64,000 bases of DNA, taken from NCBI GenBank assembly GCA_016201405.1, contig JACQCZ010000014.1:106631-170630 (forward strand), in the 5' to 3' direction. Positions within the stretch are counted from its first letter, which is position 1. The number at the start of each line of letters is the position of its first letter. The DNA is from Candidatus Acetothermia bacterium. GTDB lineage: Bacteria; Bipolaricaulota; Bipolaricaulia; RBG-16-55-9. Made by a program: the position numbers and the translations under genes. The notes beneath the pieces are model-generated. The model was not told where the DNA came from and did not search any database. It was given only the letters and a program-made list of their open reading frames with translations. Shown piece after piece: positions 4,468 to 28,154 of this stretch.

Positions 4468-4922
4468 GAATCTTGGGGATTGATCTTGGCTCAAAGCGCA
4501 TCGGCCTCGCCCTCAGCGACGAGACAGGAGCACTCGCGTCAGGCTTTGGAACCTATCAGCGCAGAACACAGCCTCAGGACCTTGAATATTTTCGCACTCT
4601 TGTAGAGGACCAGAATATCTCAACCATTGTGCTGGGCATGCCTTTCAACATGAACGGCTCGTTAGGGCCCAAAGCCGATGAGTCGCTGCTCTTCAAAGCA
4701 GAGCTTGAGAGATTGGTGAAGATTCCAGTCGAGCTATTTGATGAGCGCCTCACCTCTGTCGAAGCCGAGCGCGTGCTCATTGAAGCCAATCTGAGCCGCA
4801 AGAGACGCAAAGAGATTCTGGATCAGCAGGCGGCTATTCTTATCCTGCAAGGCTTTCTGGATCAAAGGCGCTTTCAGAACTCAAACAACCAACCAGGCAT
4901 TCCACTGGATAATGCACTCTAG
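4464..4922 (+). CDS. ruvX: Holliday junction resolvase-like protein RuvX/YqgF
   Basis: 152 aa; N-terminus MRILGIDLGSKRIGLALSD is the YqgF/RuvX signature. Confidence 0.9.
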   Translation: MRILGIDLGSKRIGLALSDETGALASGFGTYQRRTQPQDLEYFRTLVEDQNISTIVLGMPFNMNGSLGPKADESLLFKAELERLVKIPVELFDERLTSVEAERVLIEANLSRKRRKEILDQQAAILILQGFLDQRRFQNSNNQPGIPLDNAL

Positions 4923-5016
4923 ATGGCTCCTCAATATTGACTGCCTGCTTCAAATCCTGTACAAACTTTTTCAATGATTGTGCTGAAAATCCAGCATCAT
5001 TCATCAGGAGGTCGCT

Positions 5017-6363
5017 GTGACCACACGGGATAGCAGAGGGCATTGGAGCCGGAGAGAATTTTTGAAAACGGCCGGAGTCGGGTTAGGTGCGCTCTCACTC
5101 GCTTCGTTTGTAGGCTTCTCTCAAGCCACCCCAGCCATTCGCATCGGGCTCATCGATCCACTGCTCTTGCCCGTTGGAACGGCTGCTACGCGCGGCGCAT
5201 CGATTGCTGTCGATGAGATCAACGCCGCCGGGGGCGTCTTGGGCCGGCCCTTCAAAGTTGACTCGTACATCAAAGATGATGGCCTCGACACAAGCGTTGG
5301 GCCACAAAACTTTGAGACGCTTGTCGTTGAGGATAAAGTCTTGGCTGTCGTCGGAGGCTTTCTCGATGAAGTGACTCTGGCCATTGTAGACACAGTTCTG
5401 CCGCGTCTTCGCACCCCATTTTTAAATACAGGAACTGCCACTCCAGAGACAACAGATCGTGTGCGAACTGACTATGCCAATTTCAAATATTATTTCCGGC
5501 TGATGCTGGACACCGACATCCTGACGGCGGACACCGTCAGTGCCGCAGCAGGGGTCCTCGGCAAAGAGGTCCATGTCACATCTGCCGGGATTCTCGTCGA
5601 AGATGGTGTCTTTGGCCGCGATTTCCAAAGCTTCATGGAGACCAAGCTCCCAGGCGTCGGAATCAGCGTCCCAAGCGGTGCTTCCTTCCGCTTTCCAGAG
5701 AGCGGAAGTTTTGATTTCAGCAGCATCCTAAATCAATCGAAAGAGGCTGGTGTGGAGGCATTTATCATTGCCTTTGCCCGAAACGATGGCGTTGGCTTTG
5801 TGACACAGTGGTTCAATCAGGGTCCGCGTGTCCCTGTGCTTGGCATCAATGTCTCTGGCCAGGCCTTTGAATATTATGCAAGCACGCTAGGCAAAGTCGT
5901 CTCACACGTCTATGCGGACGCCGCAACCGGTGCGACGGCCATCACCGAGAAGACTCTCCCATTTTTCAATAGCTATGTGAGCCGTTATACAACGCCTCCA
6001 GTGCAGCCCCTCTTTACGGGATATACGACCTATGATTCTATCTACATCTTAAAGCAGGCGATCGAGCGCATCGGAGAGACGCCGCCACTCACAGGCGATG
6101 AAGCTGGCTATAGCGCTTATAAAGACGAGCTTGTCGCGGCCATCGAGCAGACCGACATCATCTCAACAGTTGGACACGTCCGCTTCCAAGGAAAGAGTGA
6201 CCCTAAGCCTCATGATCCCTTTACTTTAGATGCCCAGGGCAATGTCTTCGTCGTTCCCAAGTGGGTCCAGTGGCAAGTGGAGAATGGCAAAGCGGATCGA
6301 AAGGTCGTCTGGCCAACGGAGTATAAGAACTCGCAATTTGTTCCTCCGCCGCCACAGTCGTGA
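5017..6363 (+). CDS. ABC transporter substrate-binding protein (type 1 periplasmic binding fold, branched-chain amino acid/amide family) with Tat signal
   Basis: 448 aa; twin-arginine motif SRREFLK and hydrophobic region; followed by two permease genes. Confidence 0.75.
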   Translation: MTTRDSRGHWSRREFLKTAGVGLGALSLASFVGFSQATPAIRIGLIDPLLLPVGTAATRGASIAVDEINAAGGVLGRPFKVDSYIKDDGLDTSVGPQNFETLVVEDKVLAVVGGFLDEVTLAIVDTVLPRLRTPFLNTGTATPETTDRVRTDYANFKYYFRLMLDTDILTADTVSAAAGVLGKEVHVTSAGILVEDGVFGRDFQSFMETKLPGVGISVPSGASFRFPESGSFDFSSILNQSKEAGVEAFIIAFARNDGVGFVTQWFNQGPRVPVLGINVSGQAFEYYASTLGKVVSHVYADAATGATAITEKTLPFFNSYVSRYTTPPVQPLFTGYTTYDSIYILKQAIERIGETPPLTGDEAGYSAYKDELVAAIEQTDIISTVGHVRFQGKSDPKPHDPFTLDAQGNVFVVPKWVQWQVENGKADRKVVWPTEYKNSQFVPPPPQS

Positions 6364-6411
6364 TTTTATCTTCGAGTGAGACTGCACTCTGACATGATCG
6401 CGTAAAACTCT

Positions 6412-7281
6412 ATGGAGCAAATTCTGCTCTTTGCCCTATTGAAAAGCTCGCTCTATGCGCTGGTTGCGCTGGGTTTTACGCTCATCTTTAGCGTAGGCGG
6501 GATTCTCAATCTGGCGCACGGAGCGATGCTGATGGCTGGTGGATATTTTGCGCTGATCGCATTTCAATTTCTGGGCGTTCCATTAGAGCTGGCTATAATG
6601 CTGGCCATTGCCGCATCCGCTCTCTTAGCCGCGGCTCTCTATTGGTGCATTGTGCGGCATATTCAATATTCTGGTGTCTTGACGCTGGTAGTAACCCTAT
6701 CATTTGCTCTCGCTCTCCAGATCGGTGCAGTGATTGCCTTTGGAGTCAATGCACGCAGCCTTGAGCCTGTCATTGGCGGGATCTCTCTCATCGCCAATGT
6801 GAGTGTCGAGAATGTGCGAATCGCGGCCTTTGCCAGCTCATGGCTGGCGCTTCTCCTCTTCTGGCTCCTTGTGGAGCGAACAAAGCTTGGCAAAGCGATT
6901 CGCGCCATCTCTATGAGCCAGAAGGGCGCCGCTCTCGCCGGCATTCGCATCGAAAGGACCTATCTCTGGACATGGGCCATCTCGGGCGCACTGGCGGGTC
7001 TGGCAGGAATCTTCTTTGCCTACCCTGGTGGCATCTCACCCACAATGTGGATTGATCCGCTCATCATCTCATTCGCGATTGTAATTTTAGGTGGAATAGG
7101 AAGTCTTTCTGGCTCCATCATCGCGGCCTATCTGATCGGCTTTGTCGAGACTTTTACGTTCTATGCGCCGCAGTTGAAGGTTCCTCTCGGAGCGGCATGG
7201 GTTGGAGTGCCATCTCTATTAATTACCATTCTGATCTTGATCTTCCGCCCGCGCGGGCTCTTGGGGAAGCCCGTCGAATGA
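6412..7281 (+). CDS. branched-chain amino acid ABC transporter permease (LivH-like)
   Basis: 289 aa polytopic membrane protein with typical LivH N-terminus (ALLKSSLYALVALGFTLIF). Confidence 0.8.
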   Translation: MEQILLFALLKSSLYALVALGFTLIFSVGGILNLAHGAMLMAGGYFALIAFQFLGVPLELAIMLAIAASALLAAALYWCIVRHIQYSGVLTLVVTLSFALALQIGAVIAFGVNARSLEPVIGGISLIANVSVENVRIAAFASSWLALLLFWLLVERTKLGKAIRAISMSQKGAALAGIRIERTYLWTWAISGALAGLAGIFFAYPGGISPTMWIDPLIISFAIVILGGIGSLSGSIIAAYLIGFVETFTFYAPQLKVPLGAAWVGVPSLLITILILIFRPRGLLGKPVE

Positions 7282-8342
7282 TCACGCGCAAACGTACGTC
7301 TGCTCACGCTTATCTCATTCTGGTCGGAGTGCTTGCAATCCTTGCCATCTTGCCATGGCTAGGCATCCTCTCCCCGGCGTGGTATCGCACACTGATCGCT
7401 GCTCAATTTTTAGCGATCTTTGCGATGAGCTGGGACTTGCTCGGCGGATGCACAGGGCAAGTCAATTTAGGACAAGCCCTTTTCATTGGAGGAGCTGCCT
7501 ATGCCAGCGGCTTGATTGGCCTCTATCTGCACTGGCCTCCGCTGTTTGCCATTCTGGCTGGAGCGCTGGCTGCTATGCTGATCGGGCTGCTTGTGGTAGT
7601 TCCGGCCATTCGCCTGCGGGGTCCATATTTGGCGCTCGTCACGCTGATCGCGCTGATCGCGGCTCTCAAACTGGTGCTCATCTATTCAGATGTGACAGGC
7701 GGGCTGGCTGGCTTCTCCTTCAAGCCGAATGATTTCTTCCCCCCGCTCGGCTACAGCGTGCCGCTAAAGCAAGCTCTGTCCATTTCGTATTATTATGCGC
7801 TCGGGCTGCTTGCACTCCTTGGGTTCGCAATCCTCTGGATCACCCGATCGCGCTGGGGCGCGATCTTTGAGGGGATACGTGAAGATGAGATGGCCCTTGC
7901 TGCCGTCGGGGTCAATCCTGCAAAATTTAAGATTCTGGCTTTTCTAATCAGCTCGGGCGCAGCAGGGCTTGCGGGTGCTGCATATGTCCACTTGCCCATA
8001 CTTCCCGTAGTTCAACCCGCAGGAGCGGGCGGCGTGCTCAGTCTGGATCTCTCTCTTCTGGTAATTGTGGCCAGCGTGGTTGGCGGACTGGGCACGATCG
8101 TAGGCCCTCTCATTGGAGCCTTTGTTCTGAAATTGGGGGAGTTTGGACTCAATCAGCTGCCAAGCCAGTTTGATGACTTAAAAAACATTGAAGGAACAGG
8201 CTGGATCACACTGGTCTTTCTGCTCTTGTTGATATTTTGGGTGCGTTTTATGCCGCGAGGTCTGGTGCCCACTCTCTTTGGGAATGCGATTCGCGGGGCG
8301 AATCTGACTCTTTTAGGATCGGAAAAGAATCGACCCAACTAG
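7278..8342 (+). CDS. branched-chain amino acid ABC transporter permease (LivM-like)
   Basis: Polytopic membrane protein; in-frame ATG at 7278 overlaps the upstream stop (ATGA), so the 7197 ORF start is probably an artefact. Confidence 0.75.
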   Translation: MITRKRTSAHAYLILVGVLAILAILPWLGILSPAWYRTLIAAQFLAIFAMSWDLLGGCTGQVNLGQALFIGGAAYASGLIGLYLHWPPLFAILAGALAAMLIGLLVVVPAIRLRGPYLALVTLIALIAALKLVLIYSDVTGGLAGFSFKPNDFFPPLGYSVPLKQALSISYYYALGLLALLGFAILWITRSRWGAIFEGIREDEMALAAVGVNPAKFKILAFLISSGAAGLAGAAYVHLPILPVVQPAGAGGVLSLDLSLLVIVASVVGGLGTIVGPLIGAFVLKLGEFGLNQLPSQFDDLKNIEGTGWITLVFLLLLIFWVRFMPRGLVPTLFGNAIRGANLTLLGSEKNRPN

Positions 8343-19993: not shown

Positions 19994-20030
19994 CTTTCAA
20001 CCAACATCGCGGGCGCGAGCGGAGGCATTG

Positions 20031-21905
20031 ATGAGGGGGGCATTATTTCGCTGGATTCTGAGAGTTCTATTCTCTCTTCTTCTGGTCCTCTCCTTCGCTT
20101 ACCAAACTGGGCTTGCAGATGTCAGTCTAGATGTCGAAGTGGGCTTTGGAGGCCAATTCATGTCCGGCCAGTACACTCTCGTCCAGGTCGTCTTGCAATA
20201 TCAGGGCCCGCCTCTCACGGGAGAGCTGGCACTTCACCAAGAGTACAAATCTCCGCTCGAGAGCGAGAAGTCCTTTTCTGAGCGGCGCACGGTGCGCCTG
20301 GGCTCAAATGTCAACCAGCTCTATCAATTCTATTTCCCCGTCTCCCGCTCTCCCTGGCCCAATGAGGATCAGCCCGCTCTCTCCATCACGCTCTCATCCA
20401 ATGGGAGCGTGGTATTTTCGAAGCGCGTTCCCCTCGCCGGCGACGTTGAGCCACAGCCGCTCGTGCTCGGAGTGAGTGAGACCAACTTTCCCCGCATGCT
20501 CACGACAGGAGAGCGGATAGAGAGCGTGGGACTCAATCAGCTGCCGGAGGACTGGCGAGGATATGACGGAGTGAGAAGAATCTATCTGGGCCGCGCGAGA
20601 ACCGACCAGCTCACCAAGCGCCAACAAGACGCGATCCAGCAGTGGATCACACGGGGCGGAGAATTCGTGGTGCTCGGCGGTGAGAATTTCTACTTGCAGG
20701 ATTCTTCGTGGCTGCGCCAGATCATTCCGTTTGATGTCTCAGGAATCGAAGCGGCACAGGCCTCGTCCGATCTGCCCACGTATGTTGCAGGCAAGCCTCT
20801 CGGGGAAGTCCTCATTCAGCGGGCTGCGATCCCACTTCTGGTAGAGCAGCGGGTCGTCAATGGCATCATCTTCTTTTCCGTGCTCGACTTATCACAGCAG
20901 ACGGAATTGTCTCAAGCCATCTGGAACGACTTGCGGCAGACCTCTTCTCTGCTCGACAATCAGCCTCCTGATCTGGGCTCAAAGATTTTGGGAAACACCC
21001 AGCTCGCTTATCCATCAAAGCCGCTCCTTGGCGCTCTGTTGATTCTTTATCTAATAGGCTTTGCCTATATCAGCCTTTGGATGCTGCGGCAGCCCCTCAA
21101 CACCTTGCTCTCCTCTCCCGAGGGCGGTGAGATGCGCAGAAAGAGGCAGGGCTGGAAGGTGCTCGCCTTTGTTGTCGGCTGGATGCTCATCTTTGCAGTC
21201 CCGAGCCTTGCCTATCTGGGCCAGCCCAGATTTCACAGTTATTTTCAGTCTCTTGAGGTCGGGTTGATCAGAGCCCAGGAGGGATCGTCCTGGGGCTGGA
21301 GCCAGAGCTGGTACAGTGTCATCTCCAAGAAGGAGCGCAGCCTCTCGCTGGCAGCCAGCGACAACTCTCTCATCCTGCCCCTGGGGCAGACGCAGCTGGA
21401 ACTGCTGCAAGAACGCCCCGATGCGTGGGATTTGGACTTTTCACCCAACCCTATGAAAAGCTGGTCCACAGAGAACCTCTATACCGAAGAGATGGTGCCG
21501 CTTGACATCGGCGTACGCGCGGACAAAGAGGGTGGAGATGTCAGAGGCTCTCGGATTCAGGTCTATAATGGCAGCCAATGGAACCTGCGGGATGCCGTGC
21601 TCTTTCGCAACGGAGTCTATTATCCCATCGGAGAGGTCCCAGCCGGAAAGTCGCTCACCGCTGAGCTTAGCGGTCTGGGACTCAATGAGTGGTCACCATG
21701 GAGTGGCTTCAAAGACCTCTGGAGCATCGAGGAGCGGGTGAAGAATGTCATCATGAATCAGCTCGGGATTACGGATGAATTGAAGAGGGATCGCAGCCAA
21801 TGGGTCTTGCTCGGCTGGGCCGAAGTTCGCGCGCTGACTCAGGCTTACCGCGAAAATCGTCAGGGACTTTCACTCATTCTCATTCGCTCCAAGGAGCAAG
21901 AGTAG
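20031..21905 (+). CDS. hypothetical exported/membrane protein, first gene of the MoxR-VWA operon
   Basis: About 624 aa; N-terminal signal peptide, two central TM helices, no recognised catalytic motif. The ORF formally starts at TTG 20028. Confidence 0.5.
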   Translation: MRGALFRWILRVLFSLLLVLSFAYQTGLADVSLDVEVGFGGQFMSGQYTLVQVVLQYQGPPLTGELALHQEYKSPLESEKSFSERRTVRLGSNVNQLYQFYFPVSRSPWPNEDQPALSITLSSNGSVVFSKRVPLAGDVEPQPLVLGVSETNFPRMLTTGERIESVGLNQLPEDWRGYDGVRRIYLGRARTDQLTKRQQDAIQQWITRGGEFVVLGGENFYLQDSSWLRQIIPFDVSGIEAAQASSDLPTYVAGKPLGEVLIQRAAIPLLVEQRVVNGIIFFSVLDLSQQTELSQAIWNDLRQTSSLLDNQPPDLGSKILGNTQLAYPSKPLLGALLILYLIGFAYISLWMLRQPLNTLLSSPEGGEMRRKRQGWKVLAFVVGWMLIFAVPSLAYLGQPRFHSYFQSLEVGLIRAQEGSSWGWSQSWYSVISKKERSLSLAASDNSLILPLGQTQLELLQERPDAWDLDFSPNPMKSWSTENLYTEEMVPLDIGVRADKEGGDVRGSRIQVYNGSQWNLRDAVLFRNGVYYPIGEVPAGKSLTAELSGLGLNEWSPWSGFKDLWSIEERVKNVIMNQLGITDELKRDRSQWVLLGWAEVRALTQAYRENRQGLSLILIRSKEQE

Positions 21906-21907
21906 CG

Positions 21908-22666
21908 GTGTCCGCGCAAGAGCGCGCATCAGTAGCCAATCCCAAGAGCACTGCCCCGAAAATCCCTTGGCTGGGAACCGATTGGGACTACTGGTTCGAC
22001 CGCGAGACGTGGTCATCCCTGATGGCGTTTCTTCTGCTGTCGGGAGGCATCTTGCTCGTTGCCTTGCCGAACACAACCGAAGTCGGCAGGCTCACTCCCA
22101 AATCCATGGAAGCGACTGATCTCTTCTCGGCCCTCTATTCAATCTTATTTGGGATTCTGGCGATCACGCTTGGACAGGCCGAGTTGTCTTGGGGACATCG
22201 GCTCAGCAGCCAGGAGCATTTTGTTCATCTATTTAGCCGTCTGGTGGTGCCGCTGGTGCTCAGTCTGCCCTACTGGATTCTTTATATCTTCGCCAATATC
22301 ATGAGCCCACTTTTAATTATTGTACTCCTTGTGCATTTTATTTTATATGGTTATGTGCTCGGGCTTTGCGGCTGGCGGCTATCGCTGATGGGGCAGTCCG
22401 AGATCTTCCAATTCAACATCAAATATCTGAGCTACTTTGGGCTGGTCGCGATTACCTTCTTTGCTGCGCCGCTCCAGTTCATCAATCCCATCTTGGCGAT
22501 CACGGAGATTTTGGGGGAGAATGGCATGGCTCCCGCACTCAATCTGTTGGGCTTCTATACCGCATGGCTGGCGCTGGGTGCGGTCATAGCGTACTTGATC
22601 TTGCACAAACTGAATACGGAGAATCGAGAAATGGAGGAGTATGAAAACGAACTATCTCGTCGTTGA
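21908..22666 (+). CDS. hypothetical polytopic membrane protein
   Basis: About 253 aa with about 6 predicted TM helices; GTG start immediately after the upstream stop (the ORF track begins at 21800, overlapping the previous gene). Confidence 0.45.
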   Translation: MSAQERASVANPKSTAPKIPWLGTDWDYWFDRETWSSLMAFLLLSGGILLVALPNTTEVGRLTPKSMEATDLFSALYSILFGILAITLGQAELSWGHRLSSQEHFVHLFSRLVVPLVLSLPYWILYIFANIMSPLLIIVLLVHFILYGYVLGLCGWRLSLMGQSEIFQFNIKYLSYFGLVAITFFAAPLQFINPILAITEILGENGMAPALNLLGFYTAWLALGAVIAYLILHKLNTENREMEEYENELSRR

Positions 22667-24380
22667 GCAAGAGGTGATTGAGGCGCGGCGGCGGTTGAAT
22701 CGCCTTCAGGGTGTGCGGCTGGGGTTGACTCTCTCAGCCTCGCTGACGCTCGTCTATCTCATTCTCTTCTTCTTTGGCTGGGTACAGTTGATTCAGCCCT
22801 GGCCGATTCTCATTCTCTTTAACGCCATCTGCGGCGGACTCGGCATGATGTGGGGAGATCGGCGTCCAACGCGCCTCCAGCACGACCTGCTCCGTGTCGA
22901 CCGCGCGCTAGGGCTTGGCGAGAAGCTCACGACGATCTTTGAGCTTCGCCGGGGTGAGCGCTCATCCGACATCTTGGAAGCCCTCTATCGCCGGATTGAC
23001 CAGAGCCACGTCGATCCCAAAGAAGTCTTCAAGCTCCCCCGCACGGAGCAGAATGGCTGGTATGCGCTCGGCGGGATCACTGCCGGCATCTTGCTGATGA
23101 TCGGGCTTTGGGGGAATGGCCTCAGTCTCCTCCATATTGAGCAATGGCTCCAAGGTCTGCCGATAAATGAGCTTTCCAGTCAACAGACTCTCCTGGGTAA
23201 AGATGCACTGGATGGCTCACAAAGCGTTTTAGGGAAGGGCCAGAATCAATCGAATGCCAAAGATAAGAAGAGTGATGACGCAGCCTGTGAAAAGCAAGAC
23301 TCTTCTTCAACAGCCCTGAGCAGCGATGCAAATTGCGTCAATGGCAGAGATCAGAATTCACCTACAGATTCGCAAAATCAGACGGCGAAGAATCAAAATG
23401 GCCAGAATATGCCGCCAAACTTTCCACAGAGTCTGTCCGATTTGCTGCAACAGCTCCAGCAGGGGAATATCTCACAAGATGAAGTGCAAAAAGATCTGAG
23501 CAGCCTCGCCAATCAGCTTCCGCCAGGCCTGTTGCAAGATATGCTAAAAGACGCAGCAAAGAGCATGGATCCTGCTGACCTTGCGAAGCGGCTGGCCGAT
23601 GCCCTCAAGGAAGCACAACGTCAGGATGAGAACCAGAAGAAGCGGGCTCAATCCAATGACAAAAATGACAACCAGCCCTCTCCTCAAGGGGGCCCAGGCT
23701 CCAAAGGCCAGGGGATCCCGGGTATGGCCTCTGGAGACCAATTGGCAAATCAGAATCAAAACAACTCGAATAAATCAGGCACAGAAGCCCCGAACAGCGG
23801 GAGCTCTTCCTCACAATCCGGTGAGAACCCAGATCAGCCCAAAGGTGGGGATCAGTCAAACCAGTCTGGGCAGGCCGGGGGCAAGCAGGGCAGCAGTGAC
23901 TCCCTCTCCCAGAATGGCAAGAGCAAAAATGACTCACCCGACAAGAAAGATGAAAACGGGAAGAGCTCTGATGGCTCCGGCACGAACGACGGATCCAATA
24001 ACAGCGGAAGTAGTAGCGGCTCCCCTGAAAGCTCATCGGATGACGAGGGCTCTGGTGGCAAAGACTCATCGGGTGGCAATGGAGCCGGTGACACCGCTGG
24101 AAATGGCAAGGATGGGAAGAAGGATCAGTCTTTGACCATGGATAAGAGCCTGCTCATCCACGGCGCCAGTCTTCCGCAGGATGCTGAGCAGCTCAAGCGG
24201 TTAATTACGCTTGGATTGCCCGTGGATTTGCAAGGCACTCAAGCCGATGGGACACCCACGCTCAAGCTCAATATCGAGCGTGTCGAGTCGCTGCTCCAGC
24301 TCCGCGAGCTTCCCCCCAATCTGAGAGCGCTGGTCCGGGCCTATTTCTTGGCTATCGCCGGAGAAAAATCGTCCAAATAA
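22641..24380 (+). CDS. hypothetical membrane protein with a roughly 300-aa Q/N/S/D/G/K-rich disordered region
   Basis: 579 aa; N-terminal TM helices, third TM near residue 150, long low-complexity polar segment, conserved-looking C-terminal 80 aa. Start overlaps upstream stop by 26 nt. Confidence 0.5.
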   Translation: MKTNYLVVEQEVIEARRRLNRLQGVRLGLTLSASLTLVYLILFFFGWVQLIQPWPILILFNAICGGLGMMWGDRRPTRLQHDLLRVDRALGLGEKLTTIFELRRGERSSDILEALYRRIDQSHVDPKEVFKLPRTEQNGWYALGGITAGILLMIGLWGNGLSLLHIEQWLQGLPINELSSQQTLLGKDALDGSQSVLGKGQNQSNAKDKKSDDAACEKQDSSSTALSSDANCVNGRDQNSPTDSQNQTAKNQNGQNMPPNFPQSLSDLLQQLQQGNISQDEVQKDLSSLANQLPPGLLQDMLKDAAKSMDPADLAKRLADALKEAQRQDENQKKRAQSNDKNDNQPSPQGGPGSKGQGIPGMASGDQLANQNQNNSNKSGTEAPNSGSSSSQSGENPDQPKGGDQSNQSGQAGGKQGSSDSLSQNGKSKNDSPDKKDENGKSSDGSGTNDGSNNSGSSSGSPESSSDDEGSGGKDSSGGNGAGDTAGNGKDGKKDQSLTMDKSLLIHGASLPQDAEQLKRLITLGLPVDLQGTQADGTPTLKLNIERVESLLQLRELPPNLRALVRAYFLAIAGEKSSK

Positions 24381-24402: not shown

Positions 24403-25389
24403 ATGACCATCGAGATGCAACTGGCAAAAACAGAAGAGGTCTTCCAGAAGCTGACGCGTGACATTCAGAAAGTTATTGTCGGCCACCAGGAGACTATCCG
24501 GGGGACGCTGATCTGCCTGCTCTGTGGCGGGCATGCTCTTCTCGAAGGCGTACCCGGGCTCGGCAAGACCCTCACCGTAAAGACGCTGGGTAAATTATTG
24601 GGGCTCTCTTTCTCCAGAATTCAGTTTACGCCCGATCTCATGCCCGCAGACATTTTGGGAACCAATATCATTGTGGAAGAGGGAGGCCGGAGGGCCTTTG
24701 AGTTTTCAAAGGGCCCCATCTTTGCCCATATTGTGCTGGCGGACGAGATAAACCGCGCCACCCCCAAGACGCAATCTGCGCTCCTCGAAGCGATGCAGGA
24801 GCGCGGGGTCACCATCTCCGGCAAAACTTATGTACTGGACGAGCCATTTATCGTTCTGGCCACGCAGAACCCCATCGAGATGGAAGGCACATATCCTCTG
24901 CCTGAGGCACAAGTAGACCGCTTCTTCTTCAAGATTGTCCTCGATCAGCCGACGCAAGAAGAGCTGGACGAGATTCTCAAGCGCCACATGACATCACCGG
25001 AAGTGAAGCACATCGCCGGAAGCGCCATCTCGCGCGAGACTCTAGTCGACGCAAAGAAGCTGATGGCTCAGATCCCTATTGCGGAGCCGTTGCGCCATTA
25101 CATCGTGCGGCTGGTCAATGCCACGCATCCCAAGCGGGATGAGGCAGCTCCGCTGGTCAAAGAATACGTCGAATATGGAGCGAGCCCGCGCGCTGGCATC
25201 GCCCTTCTCTGGGGCGCAAAGGCCAATGCATTCTTAGATGGCCAATTGAACGTTCGCATCGAAGATATTCAGCGCGTCTTTGTGCCTGCATTCCGGCACC
25301 GAATCATCCGCAACTTCCGGGGCGAGGCGGAGGGCATCGCCGTCGATGAGATCTTAAAACAAGTGATCGAGAAGACTCCCGAGGTATAG
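24403..25389 (+). CDS. MoxR family AAA+ ATPase
   Basis: 328 aa; Walker A GVPGLGKT, Walker B VLADEINR, and the MoxR sensor region. Confidence 0.9.
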   Translation: MTIEMQLAKTEEVFQKLTRDIQKVIVGHQETIRGTLICLLCGGHALLEGVPGLGKTLTVKTLGKLLGLSFSRIQFTPDLMPADILGTNIIVEEGGRRAFEFSKGPIFAHIVLADEINRATPKTQSALLEAMQERGVTISGKTYVLDEPFIVLATQNPIEMEGTYPLPEAQVDRFFFKIVLDQPTQEELDEILKRHMTSPEVKHIAGSAISRETLVDAKKLMAQIPIAEPLRHYIVRLVNATHPKRDEAAPLVKEYVEYGASPRAGIALLWGAKANAFLDGQLNVRIEDIQRVFVPAFRHRIIRNFRGEAEGIAVDEILKQVIEKTPEV

Positions 25390-25395
25390 CGGCAC

Positions 25396-26268
25396 ATGCC
25401 CCTTCTGCTCGATTCAGCCTATCTCAAAAAGCTCGAAAACCTGGGTCTGGTCATTCGGGGGCGCTTTCATGGCTATATGACCGGAAAGCGGCTCACTTCC
25501 CGCTCCGGGATGAGCCTGGAATTTGCTGAATACAAAGAATATTCGCCGGGGGATGATTTTCGCTATGTAGACTGGAATCTCTATGGACGCCTTGGGAAGC
25601 TCTTTGTCAAACGCTTTAACCGCGAAGAGGACGTTCCGATCTATCTCTTTTTGGACATTAGCCATTCGATGGCCATCGGAGAAAAGCTCAATTACGCCGT
25701 TCTGCTGGCGGGCACGCTGGCCTATTTAGGACTGAAAGAATTCAATCGCGTCGGGATCTTTCCGTTTGCCAGCGATCTGGCTCTCGGCGTGCCTCCCAAA
25801 GGGAGCTACAAACAGCTCTTCCAGATCTTCCATTTCTTAGAGAAAGTCGTGCCAGCGGGAGAGACCTCCATCAATGAGTCCCTGACGCGCTTTACGCGCA
25901 TCCGCCGTGAGAGCGGGCTGGCCGTCATTATCAGCGACATGCTCAGCGAGGATGGCTTTGAAGAGGGACTGGCACAGCTCCTCTATCATGGCTATGAGGT
26001 GATCGTCCTTCATCTGTTGGCTCCCGATGATTTGAATCCAGCGTGGAATGGCGAGATTCGCCTCAAAAATATTGAAGACCAGAAGGAGATTACAGTCCAT
26101 GTGGATCGCGCTGCGCTGAACGAGTACCAGACGGCCTTGGATAATTATCGTTCAAGACTGGAAGCATTCTGTCGTGAGCGCGGCATCCGCTATGCCCTGG
26201 TCTCTACGGACAGCCCTCTTGAGAAGACAGTCTTCGAGACCTTGCGGGAAGGGGCGCTGGTTCAATGA
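25396..26268 (+). CDS. DUF58 domain protein (MoxR partner)
   Basis: 290 aa; DUF58 signature YVDWNLYGRLGKLFVKRF and LFLDISHSM; directly downstream of MoxR. Confidence 0.85.
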   Translation: MPLLLDSAYLKKLENLGLVIRGRFHGYMTGKRLTSRSGMSLEFAEYKEYSPGDDFRYVDWNLYGRLGKLFVKRFNREEDVPIYLFLDISHSMAIGEKLNYAVLLAGTLAYLGLKEFNRVGIFPFASDLALGVPPKGSYKQLFQIFHFLEKVVPAGETSINESLTRFTRIRRESGLAVIISDMLSEDGFEEGLAQLLYHGYEVIVLHLLAPDDLNPAWNGEIRLKNIEDQKEITVHVDRAALNEYQTALDNYRSRLEAFCRERGIRYALVSTDSPLEKTVFETLREGALVQ

Positions 26269-28154
26269 CCTTTCTATCGGGCATTGCGCTCTGGCTTCTA
26301 GGCCTTGGTGCGATCATCACATTTATTTATTTCTTAAAGCGCCAGGCGCGGGTGCAGCCCGTCTCGACGCTCTTTCTCTGGCAAAGGATTGAGCAGAGGC
26401 CCCAGAGCGCGCTCCGTTTTCAGTGGACCCAGCTCCTCGGGCTCATCTTGCAGTTACTGGCTCTCACAGCCATTGTGGTGGGGATTGCCCAGCCGGTGAT
26501 CTACTCTGCCAGCGGCGGTGTGGGACGAATGGCCATTCTGCTCGATGGAAGCGCCAGCATGCGAGCGCTCATGCCTTCTGAAAAGATCACACGCTTTGAG
26601 CGGGCCGTACAGCGGGCTCAAGGGTTGCTCGATGAGAATCCGGCTGCCGAGGTGACCTTGGTCGAGGCACAGACGCACAGCGCAATCCTTGTACCGCCTA
26701 CCCATGATCATTCCTTCATTCGCAAGGCTCTGAGCGACGCCAGGCCGACGTATCAGGGGAATGCTGACTCGGGCGAGCTGCTCAGCCTTCTTCAAAGTCA
26801 GAGCAGCACAGGCTATGACCAAGTTGTCCTGATCAGCGATCAAGCTGCCAAGCCGCAGCAGCAGCAATTGGGGATTGATGTTGAGTCCGTCTTGGGAGAT
26901 GAATCTTCTGAAAATATTGCCCTTACGGACTTTTCTGTGCGTGAGCAGCCCAATGGCAAGGGGTATGACTTCTATCTCCAAGCCTGGAACTCATCGAGTG
27001 ATGCAGTAAACGTTCCGCTGGATATAGAAGCCGATGGGAAATCCGTCCAGTCGGATGTGATCACCATCCCCGCGCATGGCTCTCTCTCACGAACTTTCTC
27101 ATCGTCGCTTCGCTATGCGGATGAGTTTCGAGCCAAGATCGATACCACGGCTCTTCCCGACGACTGGAGCGATGATGACGTACGCTATGCGACATCTCCA
27201 CAGCCACCCCCCTGGAAGATTTTATGGGTAGGCAAGATCAATTTTTATCTAGAGAGCTTTTTGCAGAATTCAGGAGAGGTTGACCTGACCGAGAAGGCGA
27301 CCCTGGATGAAGCGGGAGATCTCAACCGCTATGACGTGGTCCTGCTCAATCAAGTCGATCTTTCGGATGCTCAGGCTGGCGCGGGTCATTATCTGGCATT
27401 TGGCGGCTCTTTTGGAAGCTATATCCTCTCCAAAAGCATTCATGATCTGACGAGTGGCGCGGTGGATGTCCAGAAAGATGACCCACTCTTGCAAGGGATG
27501 GACCCGACCGCTTGGCGACTGCTCCACATTCCGGACGCGGCCGTCGATCCCAAGGGAGAGGTCTTATTATCTTCCGAGAGTCTTCCGTTTCTTTATATTT
27601 ATGAGAAGCCGGGTCTGCGGCTTTCGTATATCGGAGCCGATTTGGAGGCTTCCAATCTTGTATTGTCGATTGATTTTCCAATACTGATCTATCGTCTGCT
27701 CTCTTGGCTTTCTCCCCGCTCTGGGGAGAGCACAACGCTGACGGCTGGAGACGAGCTTCCGCTATCATCATTAGAAAATATAAAGAGCATTGTCGATCCG
27801 CAAGGCAAGACCTGTCAATACAATTCTTCCGCAAGCCAGTGCGGCAGCTTGGGCGAGATCGGTTTCTATCAGGCCACGCGAGCCGATGGAGAGGCCGTGA
27901 CTTTCGCCGCCAATGCGGATCCAACAGAGTCTATTTGGGAGGATGCTTCGGATGCGGCTGCAACTGCAGTGACTCCGACGAGCTCACAGCAGGCAGGGTC
28001 ACTGGGCGACACGCCGCAAGCGTTAAAAGCGGCGATCCCTGTATGGCCCTATTTGCTGGCGATTGGATTGATCTTATTACTGGCTGAGCTCTTCACATTT
28101 CACCGTCCAACGGCAATTCCATGGCTGCCCTCCCTGGGGAGGAAGAGGGCATGA
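26265..28154 (+). CDS. BatA-like membrane protein with VWA domain
   Basis: 629 aa; N-terminal BatA-type TM region, MIDAS-like DGSAS motif, C-terminal TM helix. Start overlaps upstream stop. Confidence 0.7.
   Translation: MTFLSGIALWLLGLGAIITFIYFLKRQARVQPVSTLFLWQRIEQRPQSALRFQWTQLLGLILQLLALTAIVVGIAQPVIYSASGGVGRMAILLDGSASMRALMPSEKITRFERAVQRAQGLLDENPAAEVTLVEAQTHSAILVPPTHDHSFIRKALSDARPTYQGNADSGELLSLLQSQSSTGYDQVVLISDQAAKPQQQQLGIDVESVLGDESSENIALTDFSVREQPNGKGYDFYLQAWNSSSDAVNVPLDIEADGKSVQSDVITIPAHGSLSRTFSSSLRYADEFRAKIDTTALPDDWSDDDVRYATSPQPPPWKILWVGKINFYLESFLQNSGEVDLTEKATLDEAGDLNRYDVVLLNQVDLSDAQAGAGHYLAFGGSFGSYILSKSIHDLTSGAVDVQKDDPLLQGMDPTAWRLLHIPDAAVDPKGEVLLSSESLPFLYIYEKPGLRLSYIGADLEASNLVLSIDFPILIYRLLSWLSPRSGESTTLTAGDELPLSSLENIKSIVDPQGKTCQYNSSASQCGSLGEIGFYQATRADGEAVTFAANADPTESIWEDASDAAATAVTPTSSQQAGSLGDTPQALKAAIPVWPYLLAIGLILLLAELFTFHRPTAIPWLPSLGRKRA

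Follow-up and report, generated by a model that had tools for sequence, protein, structure and literature searches.

A conserved membrane protein with disordered polar segments in a Bat-like MoxR–DUF58–VWA gene cassette of Candidatus Acetothermia

In a 64,000-nucleotide stretch of the genome of a Candidatus Acetothermia bacterium (contig JACQCZ010000014.1; ‘the window’ in the following), the gene directly upstream of a MoxR-type AAA+ ATPase encodes a membrane protein of 579 residues, here called the target, with long polar segments and no family name. Judged by conserved gene order, the target is a fixed component of a seven-gene cassette that runs from a 625-aa protein and a multi-transmembrane (multi-TM) protein through the target, MoxR, a DUF58 protein and a BatA-VWA protein to a double-VWA protein. 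It is built of five modules: an N-terminal module with three TM helices, a first polar segment, a helical domain, a second polar segment and an alpha/beta C-terminal domain. On balance, we consider it probable that the protein is a subunit of the MoxR/DUF58/BatA-VWA cassette that would hold acidic tethers outside the membrane and couple to MoxR and DUF58 through a cytoplasmic loop. The best-supported reading is that it serves a transmembrane MoxR/VWA complex as a structural or coupling subunit.

The cassette itself is of a known kind, a Bat-like MoxR–DUF58–VWA operon, of which the target is an undescribed accessory subunit. An AAA_3 MoxR gene adjoins the target on the same strand, and the cluster encodes DUF58 and VWA proteins with a metal ion-dependent adhesion site (MIDAS). 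The VWA domains match PF13519 or PF00092, and the DxSxS signature of the MIDAS is intact in all four VWA-type domains of the cassette. The first 26 nt of the target open reading frame (ORF) also belong to the upstream ORF, and the target stop codon is followed after 22 nt by the ATG of MoxR, which bears out the earlier, preliminary description of this DNA in placing the gene inside a MoxR operon and immediately before the ATPase.

Gene order was compared across 13 related loci, comprising five from reference genomes (found with an alignment of the 14 closest family sequences), seven from metagenomic contigs with divergent members, and one from a close relative (L014). The target is located directly upstream of a same-strand AAA_3 MoxR gene in all 13. 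Three of the five reference genomes are Candidatus Fraserbacteria and two are Candidatus Bipolaricaulota; in each of them, tblastn recovered the seven genes, as far as the contig runs, with order and strand unchanged. Identities to the window proteins are 73–77% for MoxR, 65–69% for DUF58, 55–59% for the double-VWA protein and 28–34% for the target. The seven metagenomic contigs carry the downstream genes and homologs of both upstream genes where the contig reaches, and L014 holds the complete cassette. Both upstream genes are co-conserved with the target wherever the locus extends to them (L002–L006, L008, L010, L011 and L014). Since neither the 625-aa protein nor the multi-TM protein has a Pfam or NCBIfam match and both are co-conserved, the cassette includes three unnamed families, not one.

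The target family was assembled by an exhaustive phmmer search with residues 1–177 and consists of 31 cluster representatives of 450–648 aa; the cassette has been found in Bipolaricaulota (Acetothermia), in Fraserbacteria and in metagenomic lineages without assignment. Three capped searches contributed little. With the whole protein, a word-index search yielded the target alone because low-complexity words swamped the candidates, and one with the C-terminal 82 aa gave no match. A profile search with the N-terminal and C-terminal modules retrieved just four fragments, and tblastn against plasmids produced no match. In the family alignment, all 31 members share the five-module layout, with the N-terminal, helical and C-terminal modules colinear in a single ORF, and five residues are invariant: D87, E94 and L96 in the loop between TM2 and TM3, and Y568 and F569 at the C-terminus. 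The folded modules retain their length and motifs, and the disordered segments retain only their composition, being rich in G, S, E, D and Q and net negative. These segments contain most of the alignment gaps, vary in length up to 3.6-fold within the family (Table 1), and shift in composition from S/G/N/D/Q/K in the target to G/S/E/A/P in other members, with a net negative charge in 29 of 31. The comparison with orthologs proposed at the outset, to see whether the low-complexity length varies between conserved termini, therefore comes out as anticipated.

The target ORF is a genuine gene, correctly framed and without a frameshift. Its product is identical to NCBI MBI1729971.1, which is named ‘hypothetical protein [Candidatus Acetothermia bacterium]’, and the same 579-aa protein was recovered from several independent assemblies. 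A codon log-likelihood trained on neighboring genes and scored in 240-nt windows is above zero only for the annotated frame, and this holds in every such window, the polar part included. The relative P0036, encoded at L014, is 91% identical to the target and equal in length, with no indels. Ratios of nonsynonymous to synonymous substitution rates (dN/dS), estimated against it module by module by the Nei–Gojobori method, are listed in Table 1, and the substitutions in disordered segment 2 are distributed 9/4/22 over codon positions 1, 2 and 3. The low dN/dS in an indel-free alignment, together with this codon-position pattern, shows that the low-complexity DNA is translated in the annotated frame and is subject to purifying selection, so that the disordered segments are under purifying selection at short evolutionary distance. 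Both the ORF and its frame, as originally called, are thus confirmed by codon statistics and by the close relative, and the three low-complexity runs quoted in that description all lie within the translation.

The polar bias of the protein is far beyond chance. The residues Q, N, S, D, G and K make up 0.82 of amino acids 346–495, compared with a highest value of 0.51 in any 150-aa segment of the 47 other proteins of the window (mean 0.33, sd 0.06). Tandem Repeats Finder detected no tandem DNA repeat, and replication slippage is therefore not the source of the low complexity. Over the same polar DNA there are alternative-frame ORFs at 23581–24135, 23605–24069 and 23852–24109, which had been set aside as artefacts from the start, correctly by the present data. 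Only 13.4% of the bases in the polar stretch are T, and these frames stay open because the stretch is T-poor and a stop codon, whichever strand it is read from, cannot occur without a T on the plus strand. Across 23581–24135, the 39 nucleotide differences from P0036 amount to 30 amino-acid changes in the +1 ORF and 13 in the annotated frame. The minus-strand ORF 23852–24109 acquires an internal stop in P0036 and was rejected as a gene for that reason. This antisense ORF also has just two amino-acid differences for 14 nucleotide differences from P0036, which mimics conservation; possibly the antisense and sense frames share their wobble positions. A scan for promoters and terminators yielded nothing above chance.

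The modules were delimited with an AlphaFold2 (AF2) model built on the 31-sequence alignment. Hydropathy places three hydrophobic helices at about residues 27–49, 55–72 and 140–162, and AF2 has helices at 3–45, 55–73 and 134–158, in agreement with the three TM helices noticed previously, though these are not consecutive: a conserved soluble loop of 67 aa separates TM2 from TM3. The predicted local distance difference test score (pLDDT) exceeds 90 for residues 1–160 and 95 for about 260–340, ranges from 70 to 83 for 503–575, and is below 50 for 191–253 and 349–502. A disordered region of roughly 300 residues had been proposed for this part of the protein. The polar span does extend from residue 176 to 502, but it is not a single disordered stretch, as the folded residues 259–345 split it in both the AF2 model and the pattern of family conservation. 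This helical domain has four helices in the model (residues 261–273, 279–292, 297–306 and 311–341). Segment 2, which follows it, consists of 21% S, 19% G, 11% N, 11% D, 9% Q and 9% K. The C-terminal segment, rightly described as more ordered, is modeled with the element order beta-alpha-beta-beta-alpha-alpha and carries the motif LLI.G..LP.D..LL..L.T.G.PvD...LPPELR.LVRaYFLaI, with Y568 and F569 in the LPPELR.LVRAYFLAI part. In 12 of the 14 closest members, the cysteines of segment 1 (Table 1) are spaced 9–24 residues apart and often flank a motif resembling L[AT]E[ED]Q; the pair may form a small disulfide loop in an otherwise featureless segment.

Topology was assessed from charged residues and cysteines. 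Over the 31 members, the median number of lysines plus arginines is 6 in the N-tail, 0 in the TM1–TM2 loop, 13 in the TM2–TM3 loop (aa 73–139) and 1 in the stretch of 30 residues that follows TM3. By the positive-inside rule, these medians put the region after TM3 outside the cytoplasm and the N-tail and the 73–139 loop inside it. Independently of the charge pattern, each of the 31 members has either 0 or exactly 2 cysteines after TM3, which is the parity expected of a disulfide and so likewise indicates an exported region. We infer that the N-terminus is in and the C-terminus out; both disordered segments would then belong to an extracytoplasmic part of about 415 residues that follows TM3. 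The same analysis predicts the VWA domains of both downstream proteins on that side as well, along with the two large domains of the 625-aa protein, each of them lying between TM anchors. MoxR and the DUF58 protein have no TM segment, and the VWA proteins have double anchors of the BatA type. The N-tail and the 73–139 loop would be the only parts of the target that MoxR and DUF58 can reach.

Bat/MoxR-VWA proteins are presumed in the literature to assemble into a complex at the membrane, the function of which is unknown (PMC3557215, PMC5700661). In Bacillus subtilis, extracytoplasmic disordered regions of membrane proteins work in cell-wall sensing (PMC9732909). For the target, we propose flexible tethers outside the membrane: the disordered segments, with their negative charge, would give the helical and C-terminal domains a variable reach from the membrane, so that these could contact either the wall or the VWA ectodomains with their MIDAS. 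On the inner side, the loop with D87 and E94 and the Arg-rich N-tail would be the likely docking site for MoxR and DUF58, since no other membrane subunit would present as large a conserved surface to the cytoplasm. The cytoplasmic MoxR and the MIDAS-containing DUF58 adaptor could act on the complex by way of this loop and tail. A spacer or tether, which was one of two roles originally suggested for the polar stretch, fits these data.

Several points weigh against this proposal. The topology derives from the positive-inside rule and cysteine parity, and the tie of the target to MoxR, DUF58 and the VWA proteins is one of synteny only. The model of the C-terminal domain is of moderate confidence (pLDDT ∼69). 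It is conjecture that D87 or E94 might serve as a ligand of the DUF58 MIDAS, an idea that comes from the need of a MIDAS site for an acidic ligand and the invariance of the two residues, and equally conjectural that the acidic disordered segments might be ligands of the outer VWA MIDAS sites. The envelope type of Acetothermia is unresolved (PMC6092417), and so is what a tether would span. The function of the whole MoxR–DUF58–BatA class is unknown as well; in the words of one report, ‘Bat function remains elusive’ (PMC3557215).

Three other explanations have to be set against the tethered coupling subunit. The polar region was initially thought to be a possible flexible substrate of the ATPase, in which case it would be cytoplasmic and would serve MoxR as a substrate or threading handle. 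AAA+ unfoldases often engage disordered segments, and the target gene is 22 nt from MoxR in a conserved synteny. This explanation is nonetheless distinctly improbable, as the positive-inside rule applied to 31 members places the region after TM3 outside, across the membrane from MoxR, and the strict count of 0 or 2 cysteines in it suggests a disulfide and hence an extracytoplasmic location. Conservation also argues against a substrate: no part of the protein is less conserved than the disordered segments, and the cytoplasmic loop ranks with the best-conserved modules and contains three of the five invariant residues. Still less credible is an ORF artefact, either two genes fused by a frameshift or misassembly or a polar part that is non-coding filler. 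Errors of assembly and sequencing arise easily in low-complexity DNA, and long frames are open elsewhere over the same DNA, yet an identical protein occurs on independent assemblies, no tandem repeat is present, and the annotated frame scores best throughout. The 91% identical relative has no indels and a dN/dS of ∼0.1 in the polar segments, the three folded modules are carried colinearly in one ORF by 31 of 31 members, and the alternative frames suffer 30 versus 13 amino-acid changes or a stop codon in the relative. Frame scores, the indel-free relative and family colinearity effectively refute an artefact of frameshift or gene fusion, and we assign it a negligible probability.

An envelope sensor or regulator would deserve more consideration than either of these, though we still think it unlikely. 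In such a protein, the outer disordered segments would probe the wall and signal through the TM module and the loop to MoxR and DUF58. Such a role would agree with the predicted extracytoplasmic position of the disordered segments and with a conserved loop on the cytoplasmic side of the membrane. There is precedent for disordered regions in cell-wall homeostasis in RsgI and PBP1 of B. subtilis (PMC9732909), and Rhizobium mutants in MoxR operons are reported to have envelope and morphology defects, as cited in PMC5700661. On the other hand, Pfam, NCBIfam and the PDB reveal no recognizable signaling domain in the target, and the Pfam scan of the cassette shows no sigma factor, protease or kinase. 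The conserved helical and C-terminal domains further suggest specific partners instead of a free probe. We also considered an extension of the coupling-subunit reading, for which we see only a slim chance. The target family and the two upstream membrane-protein families would form a distinct, undescribed type of MoxR/VWA envelope machine in which the AAA+ ATPase and DUF58 grip the D87/E94 hairpin and thereby control an outer module on acidic tethers. Control could be mechanical or allosteric and tether length tunable, as in an ATP-driven analog of the TonB/TolA principle, and the acidic tethers or the GGDxAG motif might bind the extracytoplasmic VWA MIDAS sites.

Library searches place the target in no described family. 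Family library scans were run at E ≤ 1, and the matches listed are the best 25 of 81 Pfam and the best 25 of 60 NCBIfam families. Among these, neither the target nor the 31-member family has a meaningful match; PF07584 (BatA-N), the BatD model and TPR are absent for the target and 30 relatives, and TIGR02302/PF13779 is absent for the target and for the 31 members. No library model contained the motifs LYRVDR..GLGEKL or LR.LVRAYFLAI. Against the PDB, neither a profile search (no match below E = 0.37) nor a Foldseek comparison of the target model (no match below E = 1) gave a significant match. None of the seven cassette proteins matches a PADLOC model of anti-phage defense, including those of MoxR–vWA conflict systems, at E ≤ 0.001.

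The Bat-type operons used for comparison were the Bacteroides aerotolerance operon batI–batE, Borrelia bb0170–bb0176, the Leptospira bat cluster and Rhizobium cmdA–D. The window cassette shares with them an AAA_3 MoxR, a DUF58 protein and BatA-type double-TM VWA proteins with MIDAS motifs in a co-oriented, tightly packed arrangement, as well as accessory membrane proteins of unknown role. In contrast to these operons, where BatC, BatD and BatE are located 3′ of MoxR, the cassette has three unannotated membrane proteins 5′ of MoxR, and the target, which lacks BatA, BatD, TPR and SH3 domains, fits no described accessory protein.

TIGR02302/DUF4175 (PF13779) proteins are alphaproteobacterial, have two or three N-terminal TM helices and Gln/Gly-rich low complexity, and are associated with gene clusters for MoxR, DUF58 and double-TM-anchor proteins. 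The target resembles them in architecture only, in that two or three TM helices at the N-terminus precede a long low-complexity region, which is predicted to lie outside. Its family members are shorter (450–650 aa compared with ∼850 aa) and do not match the hidden Markov model. It is also reminiscent of the TonB/TolA tethers, which have an N-terminal anchor, a long low-complexity spacer and a small C-terminal alpha/beta domain, beside an energy-converting machine; no fold similarity was found between the C-terminal domain of the target and those of TonB/TolA. With both groups, the resemblance would be an analogy of design only. RsgI and PBP1 of B. subtilis are likewise membrane-anchored with long polar disordered regions outside and have an envelope role (PMC9732909). 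Unlike them, the target has no anti-sigma or PBP domain, and its disordered segments link folded domains instead of forming the end of the protein.

Few bacterial gene clusters without a known mechanism are as widespread as MoxR–DUF58–BatA/VWA operons. To these the target adds a conserved subunit that had no name and whose modules can be clearly separated, and a testable predicted topology that would part an invariant acidic hairpin within reach of the ATPase from the outer tethers and the helical and Tyr-Phe domains. The family is small and well defined, and is suited to multimer modeling or heterologous reconstitution. It also provides a bacterial example of disordered segments that conserve composition and net charge, not sequence, over long distances and are under purifying selection over short ones. 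The target alone does not reveal the function of the system, and lineage-specific accessory subunits are to be expected in such operons. Interest would be much greater if the model of an ATP-driven tether were true.

Table 1. Features of the target gene and its cassette, with family statistics (31 members) and dN/dS against P0036 for the five modules
Feature	Position	Strand	Description	Family length (aa)	Mean pairwise identity	dN/dS
625-aa protein, cassette gene 1	20028–21905	+	Signal/anchor, two large predicted extracytoplasmic domains, two central TM helices			
Multi-TM protein, cassette gene 2	21800–22666	+	288-aa ORF; multiple TM helices			
Shine–Dalgarno-like site	22633–22639	+	Purine-rich GGAGGAG just 5′ of the target ATG			
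Target gene	22641–24380	+	579 aa plus stop codon; unannotated conserved membrane protein			
N-terminal module				155–169	0.32	0.17
N-tail, aa 1–26	22641–22718	+	Arg-rich, consensus ‘RRRRRLN’ (alignment); predicted cytoplasmic			
TM1–TM2 hairpin, ∼aa 27–49 and 55–72	22719–22856	+	Uncharged 5-residue outer loop (hydropathy, AF2)			
Helical loop, aa 73–139	22857–23057	+	Motif LYRVDRALGLGEKLTTIYELR; invariant D87, E94, L96; pLDDT >90; predicted cytoplasmic			
TM3, ∼aa 140–162	23058–23126	+	Hydropathy, AF2			
Disordered polar segment 1, aa 176–258	23166–23414	+	∼80 residues; pLDDT <50 at aa 191–253	79–153	0.14	0.09
Cysteine pair C216/C232, within segment 1	23286–23288 and 23334–23336	+	In 12 of the 14 closest members			
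Helical domain, aa 259–345	23415–23675	+	pLDDT >95; pattern L..L...L..GElS.Ee.r..L..LA	72–84	0.26	0.14
Disordered polar segment 2, aa 346–502	23676–24146	+	∼155 residues; pLDDT <50; QNSDGK fraction 0.81	60–217	0.18	0.13
Glycine motif, aa 478–488, within segment 2	24072–24104	+	GG[DS]x[AP]Gxx..[PA]G; G479 and G487 at least 90% conserved			
C-terminal alpha/beta domain, aa 503–579	24147–24377	+	Invariant Y568, F569	71–95	0.34	0.08
MoxR-type AAA+ ATPase	24403–25389	+	AAA_3 (PF07726, E = 2.9e-62) and AAA_lid_2; no TM segment			
DUF58 protein	25396–26268	+	PF01882; VWA-like domain, MIDAS DISHS at aa 87; no TM segment			
BatA-VWA protein	26265–28154	+	BatA-N double-TM domain (PF07584), then VWA (VWA_2; MIDAS DGSAS at aa 94), C-terminal TM anchor; most of the protein predicted extracytoplasmic			
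Double-VWA protein, 866 aa	28121–30721	+	N-terminal TM pair, C-terminal TM anchor; MIDAS DLSKS at aa 81 and DRSGS at aa 420			

ARAGORN found neither tRNA nor tmRNA genes in the 64-kb window, and no Rfam family reached the gathering threshold there. The window MoxR has a secondary Pfam match to bpMoxR (1.7e-8), far weaker than that to AAA_3; bpMoxR is the MoxR domain of MoxR–vWA–beta-propeller ternary systems. At L007, the locus of the most divergent family member (P0022), a divergently oriented gene for a 1057-aa WD40 beta-propeller protein (4776–7949, minus strand) lies beside that member, and this locus may be linked to those ternary systems. The 866-aa protein of the window has no match to GATase1_like (PF07090) at E ≤ 0.1, and the double-VWA homolog at L011 (7637–10408) has a weak C-terminal match to that family. 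The multi-TM ORF opens at a mechanically assigned ATG at 21800, which overlaps the preceding gene by 105 nt. In the close relative, the called gene for this protein encodes 252 aa, which matches a start at the in-frame codon 21908, read as valine in the ORF translation and located directly past the upstream stop at 21905. The true start of the multi-TM gene is thus probably 21908, giving a protein of 252 aa.

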